DNA of 64,000 nt from a virus (taxonomy: Duplodnaviria > Caudoviricetes): the IMG/VR virus record IMGVR_UViG_3300042975_000096; one strand, 5' to 3'. Positions 29,770-57,734 of the stretch are shown piece by piece. Below the pieces are notes generated by a model that was given only the letters and a program-made list of their open reading frames with translations, had not been told where the DNA came from and did not search any database. The stretch's first letter is position 1, and each line of letters begins with the position of its first letter. The position numbers and the translations under genes are program-made.

Positions 29770-30972
29770 TTAAGCTTCTTCTTTAATGTCATTTTCTGTA
29801 ATAACGATTTCTTTATTTTTTTCAACTGGTGCTTTATACATAATGTCTAACATGCTGTTTTCCAAAATGCTTTTCAAGCTTCTTGCTCCAGTTTTATTTT
29901 TTAATGCTAAATTAGCAATCTTTTTAATTGCCTTTGTATCAAATTTTAACTCTACACCATCAACTGCTAACAAGTCATGATATTGTTTTGTAATAGAATT
30001 TTTTGGTTCGGTTAAGATTTTCATTAATGAATCTTCATCTAATTTATGCAATGCGGTTACTACAGGGAATCGTCCAACAAATTCAGGTATTAATCCATAT
30101 TGAATGATTTCATCTGTTCTAACTTCATTAAGAAAATATTCTTTTTCTTTTTCTGTTACTTTGTGACTTGTGTTTCCAAATCCCATCACATGTTTTTCTT
30201 TTTTATCTGCAATGAAATTTTCAATCCCTGGAAATGCTCCACTTGCAATAAACAAAATATTATCTGTATTGATAGTCTTAGGCTCTCCCTCGCCCCCTAA
30301 CAGGCCATCTTTTTTTGAAGGTAGTGCAACCTCACAACCCTCCAAAATCTTCAACAGGGCTTGTTGTACGCCCTCTCCACCGACATCCTTTGCATTGTCT
30401 GTACTAGTTTTTGCCAATTTGTCGATTTCATCAAGAAATACAATTCCATATTCAGCTCTTTTAATATCTCCATCTGCTTTTCTTACTAAATCGCCTAAAC
30501 AATCTTCAACATTTTTACCGACATATCCTGCTGAAGTAATTGAATTTACATCAATAATTGTCATTGGTAAATCTAAAAGTTTGGAAATTGTTTGAGCAAT
30601 TAATGTTTTTCCACTACCCGTAGAACCAATCAGCATAATATTTGATTTCTGAATATCTTTCCCTTTAAGTTTAAATACTCTCTTATAATGGTTATAAACA
30701 GCAACCGACATAATCTTTTTTGCTCTATCTTGACCAATAATATATTCGTCCAATTTTTTCTTTAATTCAGTTGGTTTCAATATTCCTTCTAAATTAATAA
30801 TTTCATGATTCTTTTTATCTTTGAAAATATGAGAACAAATATCTAAACAATCTTCACAAATAGTGATTGATTGTGTCTTGCCATAAATAAGTTTATCTTC
30901 GTCAACCATCTTTCCGCAAAATTTACATTTTACCTGTTTTGGTTCATTCGTTTCTTCTGTGCGTTTTGCCAT
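29770..30972 (-). CDS. clpX: ATP-dependent Clp protease ATPase ClpX
   Basis: C4 zinc finger, LDEYIIGQDRAKK..AVYNHYKR, GSTGSGKT, DEIDK, DVGGEGVQQALLK, MGFG loop, TGAR. Confidence 0.95.
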   Translation of the reverse strand: MAKRTEETNEPKQVKCKFCGKMVDEDKLIYGKTQSITICEDCLDICSHIFKDKKNHEIINLEGILKPTELKKKLDEYIIGQDRAKKIMSVAVYNHYKRVFKLKGKDIQKSNIMLIGSTGSGKTLIAQTISKLLDLPMTIIDVNSITSAGYVGKNVEDCLGDLVRKADGDIKRAEYGIVFLDEIDKLAKTSTDNAKDVGGEGVQQALLKILEGCEVALPSKKDGLLGGEGEPKTINTDNILFIASGAFPGIENFIADKKEKHVMGFGNTSHKVTEKEKEYFLNEVRTDEIIQYGLIPEFVGRFPVVTALHKLDEDSLMKILTEPKNSITKQYHDLLAVDGVELKFDTKAIKKIANLALKNKTGARSLKSILENSMLDIMYKAPVEKNKEIVITENDIKEEA

Positions 30973-31107
30973 TTATAGCCACCCCTTCTAAGAAAACTTT
31001 TTAATTTCTCATCAGTATTGTATTAAAATTATTTCAAAAAATAACTCTCATAATAAACATAAACAAAAAGATGCGCAATATTACGCATCATTTTTGCCTA
31101 GTGCAAG

Positions 31108-33522
31108 TTATACAATTAAATCATTTTGACCAATATTGATTTTAAATGTGTCTTTTGTTTCATTACATTTATCACTACGTTTAGAAATTTTATATTTATT
31201 GAAAACGACCTCTTTGTTTTTATCATTCAGCATTATAAAATCATCCTTACTAATATAAATTCTTGAAAGTTGCTTAAACTTTTTACCTGCAACACAACTT
31301 AATGCTCTAGCACTCCGACCTTTTACTAACAAATCGCTAATATTCATCGTTTTGTAACCATAAGTATCATTTTCAAAAAGATAAATCATCAACAATTTAT
31401 TATCTGAGTCATCTTGTTCACTAGAAATCTTACAATCAACAATGAAATCCCCATCATCTAATTTTGATGTAGTCATTGCTTTTGCTCCACTTGCTGTTGC
31501 CACAAACGAATTACAACTAAACCTACCAATAAACCCATTGTTAGAAGCAATCGTAATAATCTCATCTTTCGTATCATTTACTAGCTTATTTACAACTATT
31601 TCTGAATTCATATCCTTAATCAATTGGGTTGGTTTGTTTTGTTTGAATTTCATCTTATTAACAAACGTCTTTTTAATATTACCATTTTTCAATACAGAAA
31701 TCAAGGTCTTTTTTGATTCCACATCAAATTTAATAAAGTTTATTGCATTATCAAACTTGATATTATTATATTGAAGCTCTGAAATTGGCACTCTTTCACA
31801 AGTTCCATCACGATTAATAATAATCAATTCTTCTGACCGTTTGCAGTTCATATATTGAATGAATACATTGCTTTTTTCTTTATACGTTTTTGATTCAATA
31901 AATTTATTGAATTCTTCTTCTTCATAAATCATAAGCAAACCATTCTTGTTTAATACACAAACTACGTCCTCTGATACATTCGCTTCTGCTACAGTATCAT
32001 CAAAAGATTTAACAATTTTAGTTCTACGTTTATCACCAAATTTGTTTTTTAATTCTTCTAATTGAGAAATTATTTCTTTATCGATTAGAATTTCGTCTGC
32101 CAATTTAGCTTTACAATCATCAATAATTGCATTATATTCTTTGATTGTATCAAATATTTTATCTCTATCCAATTTAACCAAAGTACGAACTTTTTTATCT
32201 AAGATAAAATTAGCCTGTTCTTCATTTAATTTATATTTTTCCATAAGGGATTGTTTTGCTTGAACATCAGTTTCACTATCGATAATGATATTTACTGCAT
32301 TTTTAATATCATCAATAACTTTAGTCAATCCTAATTGCTGATTCAATTTATTATTGGTTACATCTAAAGTATATTCTGTACGTCGTTTAATAACATCTCT
32401 ACGATGATTAATATAAATATCCATATAATCATCTAATGTTACCAACTTTAATGTTTTATCAACCACTCCACGAATAATGTATGATACCTTTTTCTGCAAT
32501 TGAGTTTTTGCATACAAATCTTTAACTAGCAATGGAATATTTGCTGTTTTTTGACACTCTACAACAACTCTTATATCCATGCCTTTTGATTCATCACGAA
32601 CACATACAACTCTCGGTAACGCTTTTGTTACAATCAATTCATGAATCTTCTCTAGCAAAGTTGGTTTTTTACTTTCAGGTGGCAAGTCAATAAATACAAT
32701 CTGGGGATTTCCATTTTCTTCATTTTGCTCAATAACATAATTTGCTCTGAATTCCAAATGTGCCTGACCTGTTGTATATAGCTCATCAATATTTTTATTC
32801 AGCATAGAAGAGCCATATGGCAAATCCGGTCCCTTTATGTATTTCATTAAATCTTTTACAGTAAAATCTTTATGCTGAATGGCATAAATAATTCCATCGC
32901 AAACTTCTTTCAAATTGTGAGAAGGAACATTGGTTGTATATCCTACTGCAATTCCTGAAGCTCCGTTTAATAAAAAATTTGGAAATAATGCAGGTAATAT
33001 TTTAGGTTCTGTTGCAGTTTCAGAGTAATTTGGTTGGAATTCTACGCTATGCTTGTTCATAACGTCCTCTAGAATCTCGTAAGAGGCTTTTGCAAGTCTA
33101 CCCTCTGTATATCTATCTGCTGCTTCACCATCACCGTCTAACGAGCCGTTATTGCCGTGAAAATCGATTAATGGATAACGATATGTCCATGGTTGCGACA
33201 TGTTTGCAATTGTTCCATAACATGAACCATGCGGATGATAATTACCACTTACCGCACCTGCAATTTTTGCACATTTCACATATGGTTTTGTTACCTCAAA
33301 TCCAGATTCTTTACAACAATATAGAATTCTTCTTTGTACAGGTTTCATACCATCTCGCACATCAGGCAATGCTCTATCAATAATAGTCATTACTGAATAT
33401 GATAACATAGATAACTCAATTTCATCTTTTAAGTTTCCGTCCACTATGTTTTCATTTGCAATAATTGAATCTATGCTTTCTTTGGTATTCTTCTTTTTAG
33501 CCAAATCTAACCCCTCTTTCAA
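31108..33522 (-). CDS. gyrA: Type IIA topoisomerase subunit A (GyrA/ParC-like)
   Basis: RALPDVRDGMKPVQRR, YHPHG, AADRYTEGRL (catalytic Tyr), NGASGIAVG, GPDLP. Confidence 0.92.
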   Translation of the reverse strand: MKEGLDLAKKKNTKESIDSIIANENIVDGNLKDEIELSMLSYSVMTIIDRALPDVRDGMKPVQRRILYCCKESGFEVTKPYVKCAKIAGAVSGNYHPHGSCYGTIANMSQPWTYRYPLIDFHGNNGSLDGDGEAADRYTEGRLAKASYEILEDVMNKHSVEFQPNYSETATEPKILPALFPNFLLNGASGIAVGYTTNVPSHNLKEVCDGIIYAIQHKDFTVKDLMKYIKGPDLPYGSSMLNKNIDELYTTGQAHLEFRANYVIEQNEENGNPQIVFIDLPPESKKPTLLEKIHELIVTKALPRVVCVRDESKGMDIRVVVECQKTANIPLLVKDLYAKTQLQKKVSYIIRGVVDKTLKLVTLDDYMDIYINHRRDVIKRRTEYTLDVTNNKLNQQLGLTKVIDDIKNAVNIIIDSETDVQAKQSLMEKYKLNEEQANFILDKKVRTLVKLDRDKIFDTIKEYNAIIDDCKAKLADEILIDKEIISQLEELKNKFGDKRRTKIVKSFDDTVAEANVSEDVVCVLNKNGLLMIYEEEEFNKFIESKTYKEKSNVFIQYMNCKRSEELIIINRDGTCERVPISELQYNNIKFDNAINFIKFDVESKKTLISVLKNGNIKKTFVNKMKFKQNKPTQLIKDMNSEIVVNKLVNDTKDEIITIASNNGFIGRFSCNSFVATASGAKAMTTSKLDDGDFIVDCKISSEQDDSDNKLLMIYLFENDTYGYKTMNISDLLVKGRSARALSCVAGKKFKQLSRIYISKDDFIMLNDKNKEVVFNKYKISKRSDKCNETKDTFKINIGQNDLIV

Positions 33523-33605
33523 ATATCGTAATTTTATTTTATTTATTTTTTCAAAAAATCATAAACACTGATATTTCTTATTAATATTTTTGCTGTTATT
33601 ATATT

Positions 33606-33637
33606 AAAAAAAGCACTCTGTTTTTTGAGTGCTTTTT
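33606..33637 (-). terminator. Intrinsic terminator
   Basis: aaaaagcactc...gagtgcttttt immediately after the 33639 stop. Confidence 0.75.
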
Positions 33638-33638
33638 A

Positions 33639-34172
33639 TTAACGCCATAGTTTTATTTTAAATAAAACATTATCAACATATTGCCCGTTCACTTTAAATG
33701 AATTCCATAATGTAATATTATCAAATGGTATTGCGATTCCATGAACATTAATATCTGGTATGTTTTGAGAAGCATCATATGCCATTGTTATATGTGGTGT
33801 ATATCCCTTAAACTTGCTTGGAGCTTTTTGATACCCAACACGATTAAAACATTCTTCCAATTGGTATCGTGCCTGATATAACTTGAAAGAACTATTTACA
33901 CCTATCCATAAAGCTCCTTGTGGGAATCTATTTACTCCACTAGCAAACACATATTGATTGAAACATTTATTTTGTTTTTCAAATAGTTTCATTCCCTCAA
34001 CTACTTTTTCAAAATCCGTTTCATCTTCTCCTAGAAAATCAACCGTAACATGAAAATCATTAGGGTCTTCCCAATCACCTGTCATTTTATGTTTCAAAAT
34101 ATTCTGATAATACATTAATTGTTGTTTTACCATATTGTCAGATATATCCATTGAAAGCCATAGTTGTGCCAT
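33639..34172 (-). CDS. 2H phosphoesterase (ThpR/LigT-like)
   Basis: Two HxT motifs: FHVTVDFLGE and YTPHITMAY. Confidence 0.85.
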   Translation of the reverse strand: MAQLWLSMDISDNMVKQQLMYYQNILKHKMTGDWEDPNDFHVTVDFLGEDETDFEKVVEGMKLFEKQNKCFNQYVFASGVNRFPQGALWIGVNSSFKLYQARYQLEECFNRVGYQKAPSKFKGYTPHITMAYDASQNIPDINVHGIAIPFDNITLWNSFKVNGQYVDNVLFKIKLWR

Positions 34173-34216
34173 GCTTTAACCGCCGTCCTTTTTTATGTTC
34201 TATCTATAGAATATTT

Positions 34217-34414
34217 TTACATGGTGGTTTTTATTCCAACAGTTGACTCTTTTTTTAATTTTTTATACATCTTGTGCATTTTGTTTATGTTATTGTTGCA
34301 CACAACTGATAACATATATAAATCCTGGTTTTTATCCACCAACAAATCCATAAGGGGGTTTTTATTTACTTTTGCCTTTTTATAGTATTTTTTTCTTTCT
34401 TTTAACGTAGACAT
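34217..34414 (-). CDS. Small basic hypothetical protein
   Basis: 65 aa, GAAAGGGG RBS, directly downstream of array 2. Confidence 0.55.
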   Translation of the reverse strand: MSTLKERKKYYKKAKVNKNPLMDLLVDKNQDLYMLSVVCNNNINKMHKMYKKLKKESTVGIKTTM

Positions 34415-34444
34415 TATATTTAGACCCCTTTCTTGTTTTTGATG

Positions 34445-34550
34445 ATTTCAATTCACGCACCTCGTGCGAGGTGCGAGCCGGACAAGCAAGAGATTAGAAG
34501 AAATTAAGCCCGCGCATTTCAATTCACGCATCCGTCTAGCGAGGTGCGAC
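34445..34550 (-). CRISPR. Single-spacer type I-C mini-array 2
   Basis: Repeats 34445-34477 and 34516-34550 equal the consensus plus single-base insertions; ~38-nt spacer. Confidence 0.85.
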
Positions 34551-34752
34551 AGCACCCATGCCGAAGCCTTGCTAGTGCAAGGGCTGAAATGGCACTTTGT
34601 GCGAACCCCTAATCATTTTACAAAATTCATTTACATATCCCCATGCAAATACGTATGAACCCTATAAAACAAAGGGGTGCGAAGCACCTAGTGTTTTTCT
34701 GTTCACTTATGCTTCGCACTTATTATAACATTTCACTTATTCTATTGTCAAG
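34551..34752 (-). promoter_or_regulatory. CRISPR leader copy 2 with sigmaA promoter
   Basis: Same leader; TTGACA (34751-34746)-N18-TATAAT (34727-34722). Confidence 0.9.
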
Positions 34753-34770
34753 TATTAATATTTAATTTTA

Positions 34771-36472
34771 TTAAAGATTATCAATATCTATTTTGTCAGA
34801 ATTTGATTCAATAAATTGTCTTCTCGGCAAAACATTCTTTCCCATCAGCACTTCGAATGTATCAGCCACTTCTTTTGCTTCATCTAAATTAATGCGTTTC
34901 AATGTTCTTGTTTTTGGGTCTAATGTTGTTTCGCCTAGCTGTTCAGGATTCATCTCCCCAAGCCCTTTAAACCGGTTCAGTGTATATTTATCTTTTGCAT
35001 GTTTTTGACGATATTCCCGAAGTTCTGAATCATCCAACAAATATACAGAAGAATTGTCTGATTTAATAATTCTATACAATGGTGGTTGTGCTGAATATAC
35101 ACGACCAGATTCAATTAATCCAGGCAAATAATAATAAAACAATGTTAAAATTAAGCTTCTGATATGATTTCCATCAACATCCGCATCGGCCATAATGATA
35201 ATTTTATCGTATCTTACATCGTCTACGCTAAATGTTTTGCCAACACCACCGCCAATAGAAGCAACAATGCTTTTTACTGTATCTGAATTTAAGATTTTAC
35301 CAATATCGGCTTTATTAACATTTAGAATCTTACCTCTTAATGGCAAAATAGATTGATATGTTCTATCTCTTCCTTCTTTTGCCGAACCTCCAGCGCTATC
35401 GCCTTCAGTTAAGAATAATTCTCGATAACCGTTTTTATTACTACATTCTGCCAATTTTCCTGGCAAAGCAACTTTAGAAGCTTTTTTTGTCTGTCTACTA
35501 ATGCTTCTAGCTTTTCTTGCTGCTTCTTCAGCTTCTTTTACTTTTGAAGCTCTATTAATAATAGAATCAAATACATCGTACAGTTTTTTATTTTTAATCT
35601 CTTTATCAAAAAAATCATGCATGATTTTTTCAACTGCTTCTTGTGCTTCTTTATTTCCTAATTTTGTTTTTGTCTGTCCTTCAAATTCCGCTTCTGGAAT
35701 TTTAATGGATATAGTGCAATACATACCATCCATAAGATATTTCATTTCAATAGGGTCTTTAATTAATTTTTTATCAATTCCATATTGATTAATAATATCC
35801 TTATAAGCGTTTTTAAATCCTTGTAAATGAAAACCGCCCTCATATGTATTAACATTATTTGCAAATGATTTTATTTTTGTATTTGGTTCAGCTTCATCGT
35901 CATGAATAAATGCAATATCACATAAAATCAATTGACCATTAGGCAATTCATATTGTCCAAAAAATGAAAAAGGATTATCATATAACTTTATTTTTCCTTC
36001 AATCATTTTCATTGTATATCCAGTAATACCATCTTCAAAATGATAAACTGTATCTGTTTTATCCACATCGTTAATATATCTGATTTTAATTCCAGGATTT
36101 AATGATGCCAATTCTTTCAATCTGTTATTTACATGTTCACTAGGATTTAATGTGATTTTGAAAATAGATTTATCAGGATGGTATTTTATTTCCGTTCCCG
36201 TTTCTGTTGTTTTGCCAATTTGTTCAACATCAGAGGTAGGAACACCCCTAGAAAATGTTTGTTTATAAATTGCCCCATTACGTTTAACAACAACCTCAAA
36301 ATTATCCGCTAGTGCATTTACGCAAGTAACACCAACGCCGTGCAATCCACTCGAACAATTGCCAACAACAATATTATTAATGTTATACGTATGTGTATTT
36401 TTTACATTTAAATCATAGATTTTACCTTTGTATGCTTCTTTATTTATTTCTTTTACTCGGAATAAATTTCAA
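34771..36472 (-). CDS. gyrB: Split-intein C-half (~38 aa) fused to the GyrB C-extein; apparent 1-nt insertion near 36457
   Basis: AGGGGG RBS and TTG at 36472; MKFIP/VKEINKEAYKGKIYDLNVKNTHTYNINNIVVGN|CSSGLHGVGVTCVNAL..; then EGDSAGGSAK, PLRGKILNV, DADVDG, RFKGLGEM. Confidence 0.9.
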
Positions 36473-36498
36473 AATTAACGCCCCCTATTTACAAAATA

Positions 36499-37354
36499 TT
36501 ATATGGAATTACAAATTCTTTTTGCAATTTCTCTCATCGCTGGTTGAAAAACAGTTCTTCCTGCACGTTCATATAGTTTAGAATCAGATAAACCACAAGA
36601 TAAAATTTTGTCAATACTTTCATCTTCAATTCCTTGCAATCTAAAACATTCTCTAGGCGTTAATTTTCTCAATCTATTATTGTCAATAATCAGTGGCACG
36701 TTATTTCCACCGAGTACCCATAGAAGCTGTCAATGTTGGACAATATCCTTGAAATCTTCTAAAATTTCCACGTCTGTATTGATAGATACATATTTCGCTA
36801 TCATTTTTTGATATACTTTCGAGGATAGGAAATATTTTTCCGGTACGTTGTCCTCTAATATGTCCGACAATGAACACCCTTTCTCTGAGGACGGGATACC
36901 CAAAATTTTTTGCGTTGACACATTGCCATTCAACATCATACCCCAATTTGTCCAACTCCCAGAGTATTCGTTTAAAGCTTTCTCCGTTATCATGATTCAA
37001 TAACCCCTTTACATTTTCAAACCAAAACATCTTTGGCTTTTTTATTTTCAAAATCTTTGCCAATTCAAAAAACATTTGTCCTCTAGGGTCTTTTGAGGCA
37101 AATCCTTCTCTATCTCCTGCAATTGAAAACTTTGCACATGGAAAACCACCACATAACAAATCAATATCAGGAAGTGTATTGTAATCATAAGTTCGAATAT
37201 CTTTATCGTATGGCATTTCATTAAACAATGATTGATATATTGTCTGTGATGCAATTTCATAATCTGAACTGAATACACATTTCGTATCAAACTTTTCTAA
37301 TGCCAATCTAAATCCACCTATGCCACAAAACATATCTGCATATTTGATAGTCAT
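36499..37354 (-). CDS. C5-cytosine methyltransferase homolog, candidate carboxymethyltransferase; 1-nt insertion at ~36712
   Basis: DMFCGIGG, GGFPC, ENV, RERVFIVG, TLTASMGT/GGNNVP, RKLTPRECFRLQG, motif X LYERAGRTV. Confidence 0.85.
36730..36993 (-). CDS. Nested alternative-frame ORF, EcoHK31I beta-like
   Basis: SWTNWGMMLNG..PSSEKGCSLSDILEDNVPEKYFLS; lies wholly within the methyltransferase gene. Confidence 0.6.
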   Translation of the reverse strand: MITEKALNEYSGSWTNWGMMLNGNVSTQKILGIPSSEKGCSLSDILEDNVPEKYFLSSKVYQKMIAKYVSINTDVEILEDFKDIVQH

Positions 37355-37406
37355 TATTATTTCCTCTTCTCATAAAATATTTACTATACTTTTTAGTATA
37401 TTAAAA

Positions 37407-37691
37407 TCATTTTGATGTATATTTTTTTGGTTTTCCATTTTCATCCAACACATTACCGCCAATAACATATGAGATTGAATATTTAGCATGTACTGCTGTG
37501 ACATAGTATTCATATTTCGTATTTTTATCAGCAACAATATAATAATCCTCTCCAAATTGTTCTACAAATATAAACTGTGATGAGTCATTACAAAAATCTT
37601 CACCAGTTTTTCTATTAACACTAGCGTTCCCTGTACATCCTGCCAATACAAGCGTACACACAATTAATACGATTGAAATGTATTTTTTCAT
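37407..37691 (-). CDS. Small lipoprotein
   Basis: MKK + hydrophobic stretch + LAGC lipobox. Confidence 0.75.
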   Translation of the reverse strand: MKKYISIVLIVCTLVLAGCTGNASVNRKTGEDFCNDSSQFIFVEQFGEDYYIVADKNTKYEYYVTAVHAKYSISYVIGGNVLDENGKPKKYTSK

Positions 37692-37703
37692 GATAACCCT
37701 CTT

Positions 37704-38627
37704 TTACAAATATTTTTCTACTTGTTTTGCCAAATTCTCTGCAAATAATGATGGTATTCCACTACAACGTTCATATTGTTTTGCTAATGGAATGTTTACA
37801 TCAAAGCAAAACGTATCAGGAACGCTCTGTATTCGTAAACATTCACGTACTGTAAATCTTCTAGGAGGATTTATTTGCGTTTTTCTTATATCGTAATTTG
37901 CTGGTGATGGGTATAACGGCAACTGTCTTGCACAAGAAACGATAGTAAATGATTGTTCATTCCATTGCCGTTGCCTGTTCCTAGAAATATATCTAGAAGA
38001 AAATCCACCATCATAATACTCATAATGATTAAAAGACTCATATTTTTTAGCAGGAATAGGTAAATCATGTATTGCATCATAAAGAGTTTTCTTTGGTAAT
38101 GTGTTAGGAAACTCAAAATTATCATTATGAATTCCAACAACAAAAACTCTTTTCCTGTCTTGTGGAATTCCATAATCAGATAGATTCATTAACTTGAATT
38201 TTACAATATATCCCATATTTTCAAATGATTGAATTAAAAAATTAAAAAACGCGCAATGTTTTTTACTAACCAATCCTGCAACATTTTCAATAACAAATGC
38301 TTTTGGTCTTTTATCATTAACAATACGCATAAACTGCAAACTTAAATCGCCATTCTTTTCATCATGTACTCCTTTTCCGCTTCCTGCAACACTAAATGGC
38401 TTACAAGGGAAACCTCCAATGATTACATCCGAATTAGGAATATCTGATGATTTTAACTTTCTTATATCTTTACACACAGCATTGAATTTAATATTTTTAA
38501 TATAAGTATCAACCGCATATTGATTATTATCAACTGCATAATTTATATCAAAAACATTTTTAAATCCCATTGCCCCTATACCTGCACCACAAAACAAATC
38601 TGTTACAGTATACATATTCTTAATCAT
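37704..38627 (-). CDS. dcm: C5-cytosine DNA methyltransferase homolog
   Basis: DLFCGAG, GGFPCKPFS, IENV, PQDRKRVF, RRFTVRECLRIQ; atypical motif X (QYERCSGIP). Confidence 0.88.
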   Translation of the reverse strand: MIKNMYTVTDLFCGAGIGAMGFKNVFDINYAVDNNQYAVDTYIKNIKFNAVCKDIRKLKSSDIPNSDVIIGGFPCKPFSVAGSGKGVHDEKNGDLSLQFMRIVNDKRPKAFVIENVAGLVSKKHCAFFNFLIQSFENMGYIVKFKLMNLSDYGIPQDRKRVFVVGIHNDNFEFPNTLPKKTLYDAIHDLPIPAKKYESFNHYEYYDGGFSSRYISRNRQRQWNEQSFTIVSCARQLPLYPSPANYDIRKTQINPPRRFTVRECLRIQSVPDTFCFDVNIPLAKQYERCSGIPSLFAENLAKQVEKYL

Positions 38628-39325
38628 CCTTTTATCGCAATATATCCTTCAAAATTCAACATACGCCAAAAAGTTTCAACCTTTGCAAACCCTGCTTGAT
38701 GCAATAATTCTTTATTCCATTCTGAAGTAACTGGAACCAAAACTCCAGCCAATGATTTTCTTTTTTCTTCAATTTGCTCTTTTGAATATCCATTTTCATT
38801 TTTTAATTGATAATAGCTATCTACTAACAAATTATTAATTGTATTACATGAACCTAAAACCTTTTCAACAAAAATAAAAATCCCATTTTTATTTAAAGAA
38901 TCATAAATGTTTTGTAAAATTTGCTGTCTATTTTCAATTGGTGTGAATTGAATTGTTAGCACAGACATAATAATATCAAAATTATTTGTACCAAAATCTT
39001 CTTCTAAAATGTCTCGATTCATGATTTTAATGTTATCTGCGTGTTCAAATCTTTTTTTTGCTTTTTCAATCATCGGTTCAGAAACATCAATTCCTAAACA
39101 TTGGTATTTATTGTTATTTTCAAATGGGATTAAGTTTAATCCATTTGAACATCCCAAATCCAAAACGTTTCCGCTTTTATGTTTACATAGCATTTGTATT
39201 GTTTTTCGCATAACATCATATTGTGGAATTGAACGTTGTAACATATCCTCAAAACAATCTGCTACTTGTTCGTCAAATTCCCACTTGCCATTAACGTGGA
39301 TTTTATCTTTTGCCATATTAATCAC
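38624..39325 (-). CDS. cmoA: CmoA-like carboxy-SAM synthase
   Basis: WEFDEQVADCFEDMLQRSIPQY, LDLGCSNG, TIQF, FVEK, GYSKEQIEEKRKSL, AGF..LNFEGYIAIK. Confidence 0.85.
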   Translation of the reverse strand: MINMAKDKIHVNGKWEFDEQVADCFEDMLQRSIPQYDVMRKTIQMLCKHKSGNVLDLGCSNGLNLIPFENNNKYQCLGIDVSEPMIEKAKKRFEHADNIKIMNRDILEEDFGTNNFDIIMSVLTIQFTPIENRQQILQNIYDSLNKNGIFIFVEKVLGSCNTINNLLVDSYYQLKNENGYSKEQIEEKRKSLAGVLVPVTSEWNKELLHQAGFAKVETFWRMLNFEGYIAIKG

Positions 39326-39693
39326 TAGCCTTTATATACATATAAAAATCTTCATCAACATTTTTAAAAAATAAATAACATTTCCTTTTATCGTTGAACG
39401 TATAATTAAAACTATCTTCTGTATATGGAGCATTAATGTTATTCGTCATCTTGCCAATTTTATCAAAGTTTTTTTCTACAAGAAAATTTTTAATATCATA
39501 ATCCATTGGCAAAAACAATGATAGATATTTCCCTTTTGAACATTTTCCAACGTCTGTATGTATTTCAAACTTTGTGCCCAACCATACTTTCATCACCATA
39601 TCTTACAATTTCTTCATCTTTAGATATAGCCAATTTATATACTGTATATCCATCGCCTTTTGTTGCTTGTTCAAATCCTTGTGATATTTTCAT
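39318..39693 (-). CDS. Hypothetical protein (probable indel near 39590)
   Basis: GAGGTG RBS and ATG 39693 give MKISQGFEQATKGDGYTVYKLAISKDEEIV.., which overlaps ORF 39318-39599 in another frame. Confidence 0.45.
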
Positions 39694-39702
39694 AAATCCA
39701 CC

Positions 39703-40419
39703 TCAAAATTTCACTTTATCATAAATAGGAATTTCTTTTTTCAATTGTTCTACATCATCCGTATCTTCTAGTTCAATTAAAAAATCTTCTTTTTTGACAT
39801 TCTCTATTTTTTCCCAATATAATGTATCATTACGTTTAATTAATACATAGTGACCATTTATAGCAGACAGCTTTTTGTCATTTTTCAAAACAATTGAGTT
39901 AACATCACCGTCATAATCATATGAATATACCTCTGAAACTTCGTCAGATTCGTTGTAACAGTTTTTTACTCTGCACCCTACTACTACTTCACTTATTTTT
40001 TTAACGCCCTTAGAAGTGATTACAGGGCTGTTCTCGACGAAACACTTATAACCACTATCACCACCAAATTTACCACCGGCATGAAGTCTAGTAAGAATAC
40101 CTGTTAATGTATCTTGTGGTGAACCATCTTTGTTTTTCCATTCAGGATGTGTTCCAACAGGAATTCCGCGACCTTCATCTGTACTCGTTACCGTTCCATC
40201 TTTGTGAACATGAATGGTAATATTTTCGCCAAATCCTGCCGTATATTCGTCGATGGAATTATCAATAACTTCATAAACTAATTGGTCTATGCCTGATTGT
40301 GAGGTACTACCGATATACATACCTGGACGTTTTCTAACGGCTTCCAACCCATTCAATGATTTAATCTGGTTTACATCATAATCATTTTTCACTTTTAGCA
40401 TTTCTTGTTCTTTAGTCAT
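39703..40419 (-). CDS. gyrB: GyrB N-extein fused to split-intein N-half (113 aa from Cys at 40044)
   Basis: GLEAVRKRPGMYIGST, EVIDNSIDE, DEGRGIP, LHAGGKFGGDSGYK|CFVENSPVITSKGVKKISEV..SAINGHYVL..WEKIENVKKEDFL. Confidence 0.92.
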   Translation of the reverse strand: MTKEQEMLKVKNDYDVNQIKSLNGLEAVRKRPGMYIGSTSQSGIDQLVYEVIDNSIDEYTAGFGENITIHVHKDGTVTSTDEGRGIPVGTHPEWKNKDGSPQDTLTGILTRLHAGGKFGGDSGYKCFVENSPVITSKGVKKISEVVVGCRVKNCYNESDEVSEVYSYDYDGDVNSIVLKNDKKLSAINGHYVLIKRNDTLYWEKIENVKKEDFLIELEDTDDVEQLKKEIPIYDKVKF

Positions 40420-40514
40420 TTTAATTTTATCCCCTCTCATCGTCATATATATTCATTGTATTTATTTTATTAAAAAAAATAAAGGATGAAAATTATTCAC
40501 CCTTTATTTTTCAA

Positions 40515-41745
40515 TTACTTATCTTCTTCTGTTTCGTATAACTGTTGACCTTTATCCTTAAGTACCCATGCAATAATTAAATTAAATACAAATATTGCAG
40601 AAAATAGATACATAATTAATTGATAAGAACCAAACACTGATTTTGTAAACGTAAGCAAAAGTGGACCAGCAATTCCTGCAAATCCCCAAGCTGTTAAAAT
40701 TCTACCATGAATTGTTGACAAATGTCGCGTTCCAAAAATATCACTAAGATATGCTGGCATACATGAAAATCCACCACCATAGCATGTAATAATCATCAAA
40801 ACAAACAATTCAAACAAAAACTCGTTCGTTGTCGTTGCCAACAAGAAGAACATTACAATTTCAAGTACAAAGAATGTAACATATGTATATCCACGACCAA
40901 TATAATCAGAAATTGTAGCCCAAACAATACGACCGAAGACCATTAAGCAATCCGACAATACCAACTAAAGCCGCTGCTCTTGTTGGCGAAAAACCAACAA
41001 CCTCTTGTGCCATAGGTGAAACAACAGATAACAATGCAATACCACAAGAAATATTTATGAAAAAAATAATCCACAACGCTTTAAACTGCCATGTACTATA
41101 AACTTCTTTTGGTGGAATATCCTCTCCAATAAAATCTTCTGCTTCATTGTATCCTTTTGGTGGAGCTAAATATAATGATGACAATGCCATAATAATCATG
41201 TAGGCAAATCCCAAAATCAAGAAATTGCTAACCAATCCATATGTAGAAGATAAAAACTGCATTAAAGGAGCAGCAATCAATGCAGCAAATCCAAATGACA
41301 TGATTGAAATTCCTGTTGCAAAACCTCTATTTTCAGGAAAATATTTAACCAGTGTAGATACAGGAGTTATATAGCCCAATCCCAATCCACAACCGCCAAT
41401 AACACCATAGAACAAATACAACAAAAATAAACTATGTAGAGATAATGCCAATGAAGTTCCAAACAATCCCAACCCAAAAAAGGCAGAAGCCAATAAACCA
41501 ACTTTTTTTGCACCCCACTTATCAACTAGATTCCCAAAAAATCCTGCTGATAATCCAAGGAATAAAATTGCCAATGAAAATGCAAATGTTGTTTGTGATA
41601 AAGACCATCCATTCTCAGCAATAATTGGATTTACCAAAACGCTCCATGCATATACGCTACCAATCGAAATATGGATTCCACCAGCTGCTAATGCAATCAA
41701 CCATCGATTCCTTTGTAGTTTTGAAAATACTTTTTTCATAACCAT
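40515..41745 (-). CDS. OFA-family MFS transporter (oxalate/formate or lactate type); 1-nt insertion at ~40938
   Basis: NRWLIALAAGGIHISIGSVYAWSV, GLGYITPVSTLVKYFP..RGFATG, NG/FGRIVWATISDYIGR, YGGGFSCMPAYLSDIFG. Confidence 0.88.
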
Positions 41746-41842
41746 TATTTATATCACTTTCCTTTCAATTGATGTTTTTATTATATTTATTTAAAAATAA
41801 AAATGCTATATATTCGTCTTAAATATATAGCATTTCTAATAA

Positions 41843-42214
41843 TTATTCTTCTTCCCATCTATAGGCATGTCCACGCATATCAACGTGTACAACATTATCT
41901 CCATATTTCAATCCAATTCCTTCCGCGCCTTTTTCTTCGCATAAATCTGCAAATTCATCAACCGTCATATATTCAGGAACAGCAATGTCTACTGCTATAC
42001 CTTGTATATGATAACTGTTTTTGTATCCACCAACAGATTCATTATAGTCCTTACATCTAGCGCAAGATATAATTTCTAATGGTTCTTCGACTTCTGATTG
42101 TACATTATCCAAAAAATCTAATAATTCCTCTGCAATTCCATCTTCTGGTTGCCATCCACAATGCGGACATGACAATGATTCTTCATCAAAACTATTTGAA
42201 CTATTCATATTCAA
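41843..42214 (-). CDS. Peptidase M15A (YcbK-like) zinc peptidase
   Basis: CPHCG..ISCARC..N..VGGYKNSYH..GIAVDI..VHVDMRG. Confidence 0.85.
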   Translation of the reverse strand: MNMNSSNSFDEESLSCPHCGWQPEDGIAEELLDFLDNVQSEVEEPLEIISCARCKDYNESVGGYKNSYHIQGIAVDIAVPEYMTVDEFADLCEEKGAEGIGLKYGDNVVHVDMRGHAYRWEEE

Positions 42215-49134: not shown

Positions 49135-50580
49135 TTATTCTTCTGGGCTAACTGAAAATTTGTGAATATCCCATAAAGGTTCTTCTTTATAAAGTTTTTG
49201 TCTTGTTCTAGAATGTCTTCTTAACATTGGAGTATAATCAACAAAATCAAATACATATGCGTTTTTCTTTCCATCATATAATCTCAAAACACGACCAATA
49301 CGTTGAAATGCACGTGTAGAAGATTTACCGCCACCTGCCAAAATAAGCGTATCTAATATTGGTAAATCCAATCCCTCATCTGCTATTGTTGAAGCAATAA
49401 GAATATCACATTTCTTTTGTTTTACTGCTTCCATAACTGCTTTACGGCGTAAGCCATTATCTGAACCAGATAGAAATTCTATATTCTTTACTCTTATTGT
49501 TACGTCTTTTCCTGTTTTTGGATTTTTTATAACAATACCTTGTGTCTTTTCGCCCAAACGCTTAATTAATGCTTTTTGCATCTTTTCACCATGCTTAATA
49601 TTCTTTATTAAAATAAGTATTTTTCTATCACGTTTGTGCATTTGTTTAACAATTTTATATATCATTTTATTTCTATCTTCATTGTCAACAATCGCCTTAT
49701 TATATACTTCATTATAGTTTTTTCCTTTGAACACTTGTTTTACAGGAACAAAATAAATATCTGGCTTAATCAAGTATCCTAACTCTATTAAAGTAGAAGC
49801 ATTAATATTTGTGCTTTTATCTCGTTTGCTTAATACAGATTCAATCAACATATCGTCTCCAGCGTCTCTCCACGGAGTTGCAGATACACCTATTCTGTAA
49901 TATGCAGACGTGCACTTACGGGCAACCGTCTCTGCTGTGTGGGATGGAATATGGTGACATTCGTCCCACAAACACAAATGTGCATTTTTTATATACGATT
50001 CTTCTGCTGATTGTAAAGAAATAACTGTAATGTCTTTATAATCATTAAATCCACCACCAACTAAACCGACTTCAATCCCTAAGAATTTTTCCATTTCTTC
50101 TTTCAACTGAACGCATAAAGTTATTTTATCAGCAAAAATACAAACGGGTTTAACATTAAATTTGGCGATTAACGATGCCATCATAAAAGTTTTACCTGCA
50201 CCTGTTGCTGCTTGTATAATTGCTCTTGAAGGACAATTATCAACAATATCTTTTTGATACGGTCTTGGTTCAAGTTTTATTGTCTTTGCATCATCAATAT
50301 ACTCAACTAATGAAAAATTACCATTTTGTTCTGGCTTCACGCGATTATCATTTATTTGATATTTTAAACCATTTTCCTTACAAAAGTCAAGAACATATGG
50401 TAATAATCCAGTATAAGTCTTTTTCGTTTTTCTATTATACAAATGTCTTGGATATGGGTCATGACCAAATACTTGTATGTAAAATGTTAATATATCCCAT
50501 AATTTTATTTCATAATCTTTTTCCATGTTCATAATTTTTGTATAAACGTTATCTATTTCTAATTGAATCATTATTATCAA
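49135..50580 (-). CDS. SF2 DExH helicase (UvsW/XPB-like)
   Basis: PRPYQ, ATGAGKT, DECHH, SATP, EGLDLP, QRIGRVLR. Confidence 0.9.
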   Translation of the reverse strand: MIIMIQLEIDNVYTKIMNMEKDYEIKLWDILTFYIQVFGHDPYPRHLYNRKTKKTYTGLLPYVLDFCKENGLKYQINDNRVKPEQNGNFSLVEYIDDAKTIKLEPRPYQKDIVDNCPSRAIIQAATGAGKTFMMASLIAKFNVKPVCIFADKITLCVQLKEEMEKFLGIEVGLVGGGFNDYKDITVISLQSAEESYIKNAHLCLWDECHHIPSHTAETVARKCTSAYYRIGVSATPWRDAGDDMLIESVLSKRDKSTNINASTLIELGYLIKPDIYFVPVKQVFKGKNYNEVYNKAIVDNEDRNKMIYKIVKQMHKRDRKILILIKNIKHGEKMQKALIKRLGEKTQGIVIKNPKTGKDVTIRVKNIEFLSGSDNGLRRKAVMEAVKQKKCDILIASTIADEGLDLPILDTLILAGGGKSSTRAFQRIGRVLRLYDGKKNAYVFDFVDYTPMLRRHSRTRQKLYKEEPLWDIHKFSVSPEE

Positions 50581-55745: not shown

Positions 55746-57734
55746 TTATTTAAATTTTACAACAATATTCGGTAAAATAATATTCATAGGTACGTTTAGT
55801 GTATCATAATATTCCTCATACGGAATATCATTAAACACTAAGCATTGCACTGTTGCACCTGCTGAACCTGTATTATATACTGTAAAAATATCATCATTAT
55901 CAATATCAGCATACAAATCGCCAATCGAACCCTCTTCAATTGAAGAATTTGTAGTCAATATTGGTGTTCCTAAAGATAATCTATAATTCTCTCCAAACTC
56001 CTTTGAAGAAATAGATACCCCCTGTTGCCCTGCTAATGTTGCATTAACATAATTAATATTTTTCCATGTTTTGCTATACATATCAATTACAGTCCATTGA
56101 AATTTATTTCCTGTTGTTTGAACTACATTTGATTTCTTATCTGTAGTAATACCTGTATTATAAACAATAATTTGGTTATCAACGCATTTTACAAAAATTT
56201 CACCATTTCTACCATTTGTGTTTTCTTTAGCGCAAATATGGATAAAATATCTATCATCATCTAATTTGAAGGGCATTGTAATAAATGTGCCGTCCATACC
56301 GGAAAACGTACCCTCTCCGCTATAAACAACCTCATTATCAATCAAAATGGTTTCTAAATTCATTTTTAAATTTCTTGTACCTGTATTATATACTCGGAAT
56401 CTTTTTGCTTGTTTTTCAACAAACAAATCGCCTATTTTACCCTTATCTTCCCAATCATAATCTATCAATGTAGGAATTACAGTATAATCTTTATTCTCTA
56501 ATTGATGTCCAACATAATATTTTCTTTTACGATAAATAATCTTTTTGTCTTCATCTTCTTCATCAACCATTGCTCCTGCTGTTTGACCATACTGATGAAA
56601 CATTTCAATACCATAAATTTCTTTATCATGAATGGACGGCAAATCATATCCCAAATTTTTAATAATATGTGATAAATTTTCCAAATCTTCCGTCATTCTA
56701 TAAATTTTATTTTTCATGGAAGTTTCGTCTGTATAATATTCAGTTAATGTAGTATAAATCTTATTATATTGTTCTTCCGATAATGGAGCTAAATGTCTCA
56801 AATCCGTTATTTGGTCATCATAAATAATATTGGAGAATTTACCATCAGGTCTATCAGATTTTGTATTTTCATCAACCCAATCAACACCACCAAAAGGATT
56901 ATATTTTTCATCATAACCTGAATTATTCAATCTCATAATTCTAAATAATGGGATTGCATAAACATACCCATCTATTGTATGAATAGTTGGATTAGCTATT
57001 AATCCTTCTCCGGCAATAAATAAATACGGGTCATTTTCTGACTGTTTATAAAAATATTTTTTTGCTCGATAACCATTTTGAGCTAAAGGATGTATGCTTT
57101 CATTTGGTTTCCCATCTGCATCAACAAACCCCTTACTATACTTGTTATCAAAATCTTCATAATGTGAGATTGTCCATTGAAGCTGGATTCTTCTACTCGT
57201 TTCAGCTTCAATTCTTTCATCAATGATATTAAAGTCCATAGGGGAGTTAATATCATATCCGAACATAGGAACTTTATCGTTTTTCTTAAGTTCTGAAAAC
57301 CAAAATTCAAGAAAAACAAAATCATGTCTTACATCACCTACTGGTGGATTCGGCAATCTTATCGGAATATTTTTTTTCGTTTCGCCAGTTCTATAATATT
57401 CATGATGTGTTAAAAACCCATTTACAACCGAATCAAATGGTGGTAATTCAAATCCATTCAAATTAGTTGTATTATTATTAATAATCTTAAAACATTTTTC
57501 AAGGTTATTAGTTTTATCTATTGTTAAAATTCCACTTTTTGTAATTTGTTTTAAAGTTTTTGCAGCATTGTCAACATTAAGCCATTGAGCTTCATTTACC
57601 TCACGTTCCATAACATAGGCATCAGAACCCACATTTAATGCAACAAAATGTGTATTATCTTTCCATGTTCCCTTTATTGGTTGAGAAAACGTAGGATTAT
57701 AATCTGGCAACACTGAACTTTGTGTAGTCGGCAT
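55746..57734 (-). CDS. Virion/baseplate protein, N-terminal paralog of 51343-55008
   Basis: Shared EVNEAQ, FLEFWF, DERIEAETSRR, YAIPLFRI, RPDG..DLR motifs. Confidence 0.65.
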   Translation of the reverse strand: MPTTQSSVLPDYNPTFSQPIKGTWKDNTHFVALNVGSDAYVMEREVNEAQWLNVDNAAKTLKQITKSGILTIDKTNNLEKCFKIINNNTTNLNGFELPPFDSVVNGFLTHHEYYRTGETKKNIPIRLPNPPVGDVRHDFVFLEFWFSELKKNDKVPMFGYDINSPMDFNIIDERIEAETSRRIQLQWTISHYEDFDNKYSKGFVDADGKPNESIHPLAQNGYRAKKYFYKQSENDPYLFIAGEGLIANPTIHTIDGYVYAIPLFRIMRLNNSGYDEKYNPFGGVDWVDENTKSDRPDGKFSNIIYDDQITDLRHLAPLSEEQYNKIYTTLTEYYTDETSMKNKIYRMTEDLENLSHIIKNLGYDLPSIHDKEIYGIEMFHQYGQTAGAMVDEEDEDKKIIYRKRKYYVGHQLENKDYTVIPTLIDYDWEDKGKIGDLFVEKQAKRFRVYNTGTRNLKMNLETILIDNEVVYSGEGTFSGMDGTFITMPFKLDDDRYFIHICAKENTNGRNGEIFVKCVDNQIIVYNTGITTDKKSNVVQTTGNKFQWTVIDMYSKTWKNINYVNATLAGQQGVSISSKEFGENYRLSLGTPILTTNSSIEEGSIGDLYADIDNDDIFTVYNTGSAGATVQCLVFNDIPYEEYYDTLNVPMNIILPNIVVKFK

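Follow-up and report, generated by a model that had tools for sequence, protein, structure and literature searches.

A naturally split intein probably fractures a GyrB-like topoisomerase gene within its ATP lid in a large AT-rich phage

The stretch of viral DNA considered here (64,000 nucleotides (nt); Duplodnaviria, Caudoviricetes; IMG/VR record IMGVR_UViG_3300042975_000096; referred to, at its full length, as the window) encodes a GyrB-like subunit in two separate minus-strand genes, denoted here as the N gene and the C gene, with 3230 nt from the stop codon of the former to the start of the latter (Table 1). The N gene reads ...LHAGGKFGGDSGYK and then continues as C-FVENSPV..., ...AINGH... 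and an acidic tail, so numbered that the putative first residue of the intein (Cys1) is Cys135 of the gene product. On the other side of the gap, a frame open from position 36456 reads VKEINKEAYKGKIYDLNVKNTHTYNINNIVVGN, followed by CSSGLHGVG, and runs on into GyrB. The initial annotation of this DNA had proposed that a naturally split intein fractures gyrB in the ATP lid, with halves some 3.2 kb apart, an N-intein bearing the elements just listed and a C-intein of about 38 amino acids (aa) ending before the Cys at +1. All these elements were located by the present analysis, the C-intein having 38 aa once one extra base, at 36458, is removed.

As called, the remainder of GyrB is an open reading frame (ORF) at 34771-36345, and the same frame is open upstream as far as 36456. 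The TTG codon at 36472-36470, situated 8 nt after the sequence AGGGGG, lies in another frame in the assembly and yields MKFIPSKRNK followed by a stop (10 codons). The initial annotation had attributed the absence of the C-intein from the ORF track to one extra base near 36457, a point that is borne out below by independent contigs.

The two exteins together make up a complete protein. When compared with the NCBIfam GyrB model NF004189, residues 18-134 of the N gene product correspond to model positions 5-114 and residues 34-556 of the C frame to positions 115-636, and thus the exteins adjoin at 114/115 without a gap. Joined, they amount to 662 aa, and intein-less GyrB proteins of 634-665 aa align with them without any gap at the junction. 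In intein-less relatives this region reads GYK/VSSGLHGVG (the slash denotes the junction), versus GYK/CSSGLHGVG in the predicted spliced product. The insertion site follows the Lys and precedes the position occupied by Val in intein-less GyrB, immediately ahead of the GLHGVG loop of the ATP lid, which we take to be the lid of the GHKL fold that precedes the glycine-rich phosphate loop. Across both halves, the Pfam domains PF02518 (HATPase_c), PF00204 (DNA_gyraseB), PF01751 (Toprim) and PF00986 (DNA_gyraseB_C) are recognized. The NCBIfam gyrB and parE models also match, with a summed score (141 + 567 bits) below the cut-off of 740. Because this sum falls under the cut-offs for both gyrB and parE, the protein is called GyrB-like; judged by its sequence, it has diverged within phages and is attributed here neither to gyrase nor to topoisomerase IV.

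The intervening segments were identified as intein halves by several kinds of comparison. The N-half matches Pfam Intein_splicing (PF14890) with 23.8 bits (E 4e-5) and the C-half with 21.2 bits (E 3e-4), the N gene covering the first two thirds of the model and the C frame its last 33 positions. In profile searches against solved structures, inteins rank on top for the N-intein (PI-PkoII and gp41-1), and the C-intein retrieves the M. jannaschii KlbA intein (E 5e-5), then RecA mini-inteins and the C-intein of Npu DnaE. An AlphaFold model of the N-intein alone reached a predicted local distance difference test score (pLDDT) of 79, and the top 50 Foldseek matches to this model are all inteins, hedgehog or bacterial intein-like (BIL) domains; the E-values all exceed 0.001 (best 0.006), and only the Hint fold shared by these matches was taken into account. 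The His of block B (H199) is invariant, as are the Asp of Y-D-L (F:4) and the His of T-H-T-Y (F:13) of block F in seven C-halves, and the terminal Asn of block G together with Cys+1. The net charge is -6 for the N-intein and +3 for the C-intein, a pattern also seen in natural split inteins whose assembly is helped by charge.

Some features weigh against this identification. Each intein half lies under the Pfam gathering score of 35.8 bits; the sum of the halves is above it. The likeness to solved inteins is weak (E 0.002 for the N-intein and 5e-5 for the C-intein by profile, 0.006 for the best match by fold). In addition, position B:7 is Ile or Val instead of Thr in all members, and in place of a penultimate His there is Gly (Ala in L028, one of the related contigs, which are cited here by such labels); the initial annotation had pointed to both peculiarities, and both are real. 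Chance is excluded by the matches of both halves to Intein_splicing and by the presence of this split in no fewer than 33 protein clusters. As for the residues, a class-1 intein of a mycobacteriophage that also has Gly in the penultimate position has been reported to undergo full splicing, which is slowed when this Gly is changed to His, and according to its authors the block-F His can assume the role of the penultimate His (PMC5050341); the block-B Thr is an assisting residue and no nucleophile (PMC4031507). By this analogy, the penultimate Gly appears unusual yet not disabling.

The arrangement is conserved well beyond the window. The same split was found in at least 33 protein clusters that are 53-100% identical. 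A length-restricted search yielded about 32 clusters of 206-245 aa, each with N-extein, N-intein and stop; with P0133 included, the set comprises 33 N-half sequences (125-245 aa), and every one of them has the Y-[KQ]-C-F junction and ends with a stop behind the N-intein. Two alignments, one of 19 and the other of 21 members, show no variation at Cys1 or at the block-B His, and a 20-residue tail, L..IP.Y...K[YF], is conserved as well. When the window was compared with its relative L016, the ratio of nonsynonymous to synonymous substitution rates (dN/dS) was 0.10 for the N-intein, 0.025 for the C-intein and 0.05-0.06 for the exteins; these low values indicate that both intein halves are retained by selection. 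A phmmer search with the N-intein found two close clusters, both split, followed by remote inteins only, all of them residing in unrelated proteins; a contiguous GyrB intein of the family was not encountered among 1.84 billion representative proteins, which is weak evidence for absence. A search for longer proteins from the side of the C-intein returned only C-halves and intein-less GyrB, and scans of IMG/VR with both halves only intein-less or distant GyrB-like genes.

The conserved tail of the N-intein deserves a separate comment. Its residues 94-113 (window 39706-39765; D.DD.E.L...IP.Y...K[YF]) lie past the last predicted strand and include three invariant positions, and in the model of the isolated chain they form a helix of dropping confidence, followed by a tail with pLDDT below 50. 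They are conserved although a split intein should not need them.

Whether the two halves recognize each other was approached by building a complex model from the L016 pair with family alignments, alongside three controls. The pair scored 0.75, compared with 0.01 for the best of the three controls, a mark that is reached by 58 of 80 solved complexes and by 2 of 110 mismatched pairs. At least 92% of the contacts are common to the model runs, and the pLDDT of the partner is 72 or more. This model supports the notion that the intein halves bind each other; because split inteins are well represented among solved structures, the pass may also come from likeness to these.

The integrity of the C gene was addressed by aligning to positions 33600-41800 the contigs (Logan) of three DNA sequencing runs from different studies (X3, X4 and X10). 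The contigs of all three omit one base at 36458, and they also omit one base at 36712, at 39576 or 39577, and at 40935 or 40936. When these four bases are dropped, four whole ORFs are restored: the 566-aa C gene, the 284-aa second C5 methylase, the 124-aa ORF and a 409-aa transporter of the major facilitator superfamily (MFS), the last two of which (the 124-aa ORF and the MFS transporter) are also intact in the independent contig L024. The corrected C gene starts with M-KFIPVKEINKEAY... and its length equals that of the in-frame relatives. In L016 (83% DNA identity), the C-intein is in frame after a GTG start and the sequence is one base shorter exactly at this point. Moreover, one of the aligned contigs, 7613 bases long with a depth of 79 and from another study than the window, covers 35351-41800 and departs from the window only by three substitutions and by the four one-base gaps just listed; since it spans both halves, the split is neither a pseudogene nor a misassembly.

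One observation counts against this account: L023, an assembly of the same lineage (97.7% identical), likewise has one extra base here, and for this reason the base may be a real variant in some populations. The extra base of L023 is one position off (CCAGG, versus CCGAG in the window), within the same few bases, and in the GyrB C-half L023 carries additional insertions, peculiar to it, that break the frame. A change of TACTGG to TACTCGG occurs in two of the insertions of the window and in one of L023 (window position 36022), and a third TACTCGG is found in the window at 56391. This motif does not account for all insertions, given that six TACTGG sites of the window are intact and that the insertions at 40935 and 39576 lie in other contexts. 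The TACTCGG changes look like a systematic base-calling error and not like biology, possibly one that arises at a modified TACTGG motif. All in all, the extra base at 36458 is very probably an artefact of assembly. With four single-base errors within 4.5 kb, the ORF tracks of this record will miss or split genes.

On these grounds, we hold with considerable confidence that the window contains a naturally split class-1 intein in the ATP lid of a phage GyrB-like gene and that the enzyme would be joined by protein trans-splicing. In the mechanism envisaged, the two polypeptides would dock via their intein halves, aided by their opposite charge, and an N-S acyl shift at Cys1 would form a thioester, which would then be attacked by Cys+1 (trans-thioesterification). 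The terminal Asn would cyclise with the aid of the block-F His, acting in place of a penultimate His, and an S-N shift would release the 662-aa GyrB with the sequence ...GYK-CSSGLHGVG..., which would finally pair with the GyrA-like subunit encoded nearby.

The same genes could be read in other ways. It has to be considered that the intein halves splice no longer and only dock the GyrB pieces non-covalently, the enzyme then being a three-part complex. The lack of the penultimate His and of the block-B Thr would fit such a situation, the complex model shows association alone, and there is a precedent in a fragmented phage NrdA that is reported to be assembled non-covalently by interaction domains left by a mobile element (PMC3045599). 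However, six catalytic residues (Cys1, the His of block B, the Asp and the His of block F, the last Asn and Cys+1) stay unchanged among sequences of 53-100% identity, and a docking module would need none of them; the very low dN/dS of the C-intein points in the same direction. Furthermore, an unspliced Hint domain of about 150 residues would stand inside the ATP lid, an obstruction that follows from established knowledge of GHKL ATPases. Non-covalent docking is thus judged quite unlikely.

A further reading takes the frameshift of the C gene at face value, so that the topoisomerase gene would be a decaying pseudogene or the C-intein would be reached by ribosomal frameshifting. The fact that the window and a second assembly, L023, each carry one extra base here speaks for it, yet the base is lacking in three independent runs, its position differs between the two assemblies that have it, and three further one-base insertions, all absent from other assemblies, break neighbouring genes of the window. 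The insertions in the GyrB C-half of L023, the recurrence of TACTCGG, which resembles systematic error, and the strong purifying selection on the downstream frame add to the case against a true frameshift, which we regard as very unlikely. As for the idea that the split is a misassembly, with an uninterrupted intein or an uninterrupted gyrB in the actual genome, no observation in its favour emerged and it can virtually be discarded: the region 35351-41800 is bridged by the contig from another study, the same layout is found in L016, L023 and L024, a stop follows the N-intein in 33 of 33 family members, and the protein search described above retrieved no contiguous form. Misassembly and true frameshift were among the outcomes that the initial annotation had named as fatal to its proposal, and the independent contigs, which bridge the 3.2-kb insert and lack the extra base, contradict both.

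If the split intein is accepted, the gap between its halves becomes of interest in its own right. Across the family this gap is a variable slot, which holds five cargo genes in the window, mostly for nucleic-acid modification (Table 1). The product of cargo gene 2 matches PHROG 4752, "tRNA methyltransferase" (E 3e-74), and the CmoA model TIGR00740 (E 5e-50; 170 bits, under the cut-off of 193), and the 124-aa ORF (cargo gene 1) has no match in Pfam or PHROGs. In three relatives the slot contains a single ORF of 349-363 aa that matches PHROG 3339, "homing endonuclease" (E 6e-7), and, more weakly, PDB 3r3p, I-Bth0305I (E 0.007). We take I-Bth0305I to be the founding structure of the Vsr-like homing endonucleases. 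No homing endonuclease or remnant of one was found between the halves in the window; the layout cited in the initial annotation, in which a fractured gene surrounds a free-standing homing endonuclease, applies to the relatives L020, L021 and L027 and not to the window itself.

Table 1. Features of the split gyrB-like locus in the window, and content of the slot between the intein halves in the window and its relatives.
Feature	Position or contig	Strand	Basis or remark
N gene (N-extein, N-intein and stop), 247 aa	39703-40446	-	ORF; Pfam HATPase_c, Intein_splicing; NF004189
N-extein, 134 aa, GHKL ATPase to ...GGDSGYK of the ATP lid	40045-40446	-	NF004189, alignment
N-intein, 113 aa: Cys1 (block A), A-I-N-G-H (block B), conserved acidic tail	39706-40044	-	
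Cargo gene 1: 124-aa ORF, broken by extra base 39576	39318-39693	-	
Cargo gene 2: CmoA-like S-adenosylmethionine (SAM)-dependent enzyme, 233 aa	38624-39325	-	Pfam; PHROG 4752; TIGR00740
Cargo gene 3: C5 cytosine DNA methyltransferase-fold protein, 307 aa	37704-38627	-	
Cargo gene 4: 94 aa, N-terminus resembling a lipoprotein signal; absent in L016	37407-37691	-	
Cargo gene 5: second C5 methyltransferase-fold gene, 284 aa without extra base 36712; absent in L016	36499-37354	-	
Promoter-like TTGCAA-18-TATAAT directly upstream of the C gene, a hint only	36498-36527	-	Total of such sites equals chance
Ribosome-binding site AGGGGG, 8 nt 5' of the C-gene TTG	36481-36486	-	Kept in L016 and L023
C-intein, 38 aa without extra base 36458: TTG start, block F (YDL...THTY), block G (VVGN)	36358-36472	-	
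Extra base breaking the C-intein frame	36458	.	Omitted in contigs of runs X3, X4, X10; absent from L016
C-extein, 528 aa from Cys+1 (CSSGLHGVG...) and stop; transducer, Toprim and GyrB C-terminal domains	34771-36357	-	Pfam, NF004189
GyrA/ParC-like partner subunit, 804 aa	31108-33522	-	Family models
Slot empty, genes 12-39 nt apart	L017, L018, L026		
Slot with one 349-363-aa ORF, zinc ribbon and C-terminal ...AIEV.G.Y.H... motif	L020, L021, L027		
Slot with the same 349-363-aa-type gene, broken	L028		
Slot with 124-aa ORF, CmoA-like gene and one C5 methylase	L016		
Slot with the L016 set, a small lipoprotein-like gene and a second C5 methylase	window, L023		

Regarding expression, no convincing terminator was found between the intein halves, and the total of promoter-like sites does not differ from that expected by chance. 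As the seven genes from 40446 to 34771 lie on one strand, with intergenic gaps of at most 52 nt or short overlaps, and lack a convincing terminator, their co-transcription is plausible from the layout. Contigs of a metatranscriptome run (X17) fall on parts of both halves, with possible DNA carry-over, and hence they are no evidence for transcription. A more ambitious interpretation would see in the intein break a stable cargo bay, in which a DNA-modification module (the CmoA-like carboxy-SAM synthase and the two C5-methylase-fold enzymes) is co-transcribed with the topoisomerase halves, and trans-splicing with a penultimate Gly and I-x-x-H serves as a gate on the timing or dosage of the topoisomerase instead of being a neutral scar, the pair being also a new fast orthogonal ligation tool; taken as a whole, we consider this proposal unlikely.

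The DNA is that of a large AT-rich phage of wastewater or sludge. The G+C content of the window is about 30%, and its genes are of phage type (baseplate J, a DnaB-like helicase and a RecJ-like exonuclease), with a primase-type zinc ribbon and HU found in relatives. The public runs that contain this stretch of the window come from bioreactor sludge and wastewater, in 14 studies, and a megablast of positions 30000-42000 against GenBank phages gave no match.

Several neighbouring genes and inserts were noted in passing. Directly upstream of the gyrB N gene, within the replication module, lies the MFS transporter gene (window 40515-41745, minus strand; 409 aa when corrected), which is kept at this place in L016, L023 and L024. 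A phosphoesterase of the LigT or 2'-5' RNA ligase fold (33639-34172, minus strand) sits between the gyrB-C and gyrA-like genes and is kept there in most relatives; it has a weak match, under the cut-off, to the protein Acb1, which acts against the cyclic-oligonucleotide-based anti-phage signalling system (anti-CBASS; E 5e-4). Directly past the stop codon of GyrB-C there is a perfect TTGACA-18-TATAAT at 34751-34722, as well as a terminator-like hairpin at 34688-34676. After the hairpin, two repeats of about 33 nt (GTCGCACCTCGC...GTGAATTGAAAT) flank a spacer of about 39 nt (34444-34549, minus strand), an arrangement that resembles a CRISPR mini-array of the type I-C style; its surroundings contain no cas gene. 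Over these repeats the contig depth is 10-15 times that of the flanks, and the repeat is therefore common to other DNA.

The relatives also show other insertions. In L017 (10753-15135), the GyrB C-half carries two contiguous HNH-type inteins, at EGDSAAG/C and just before DADVDG. In L020, L021 and L028, the GyrB C-half is interrupted by two short non-coding segments, one following DAD and the other KGL; those of L020 (13028-13317 and 13573-13769) both match a whole group I intron model below the Rfam threshold (36 and 30 bits; E 2e-7 and 1e-5 in a 900-base search), and at the gathering score Rfam detects nothing in the window, L020, L027 or L028. The ResIII/helicase gene upstream of DnaB has its own intein in relatives (L022, 1-784; L026, 1-107; L027, 1-1234), with matches to LAGLIDADG_3 or Intein_splicing, and the copy of the window (49135-50580, 481 aa) has none.

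Natural split inteins of this general kind are known. The fractured genes of uncultured phages described by Dassa et al. in 2009 (gp41-1, gp41-8, NrdJ-1, IMPDH-1, NrdA-2 and DnaE; PMC2677866) share with the present locus the break of one gene into two on the same strand of a single locus, with the intein halves at the break, an essential gene of the replication type, a phage as host and halves of opposite charge. There, the slot is empty or contains a free-standing Vsr-like homing endonuclease, as in the relatives L020, L021 and L027, and such a gene lay between the halves in 26 of the 27 published loci. The window differs from them in its GyrB-like host protein, in the Lys/Val site before GLHGVG and in having five non-endonuclease genes (3.2 kb) in the slot. 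In that article gyrB, gyrase and topoisomerase have 0 mentions each, and the sequence likeness of gp41-1 to the N-intein of the window is marginal (E 0.006).

Other systems share individual traits with this one. Cyanobacterial DnaE (Npu, Ssp) forms a natural trans-splicing pair of about 100 and 36 aa with Cys1, Cys+1 and charge-aided assembly, as predicted here, and Ssp DnaE reportedly likewise lacks the penultimate His; however, its halves lie far apart in a cellular genome, the host protein is another one, and the profile matches to the phage intein are only weak. The Ssp GyrB intein (Synechocystis PCC6803, with artificially split forms such as S11) is also of class 1, with Cys1 and a GyrB host, but it has Ser at +1, and in the literature found it figures only in split-intein tables and in studies of engineered splits. 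Its site is the EGDSAGG/S motif of the Toprim domain, the place at which the relative L017 has a contiguous HNH-type intein distinct from the split one. The intein of the recombination directionality factor (RDF) gp51 of phage Bethlehem (Kelley et al. 2016, PMC5050341) is likewise a phage class-1 intein with a penultimate Gly and, unlike the split GyrB intein, is contiguous, has an endonuclease and resides in an unrelated host protein. An intein census counted 33 GyrB inteins in cellular genomes and named split inteins for DnaE only, and a natural split intein in GyrB or another topoisomerase did not come up in full-text searches of the literature. The kind of element is known from the fractured genes (PMC2677866), and no natural split intein is described for the GyrB-like host protein or the ATP-lid site in the publications searched; the filled cargo slot adds a small variation.

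The short list of natural split inteins thus gains a GyrB-like type IIA topoisomerase as host protein and, as insertion site, a position in the ATP lid that lies one residue ahead of SGLHGVG. Its dozens of natural variants are candidate orthogonal tools for protein ligation, with Cys1/Cys+1 chemistry and a non-canonical Gly-Asn C-terminus. Finally, the family shows together the states of a fractured gene: an empty slot, an intact Vsr-like endonuclease, a decaying one and unrelated cargo.

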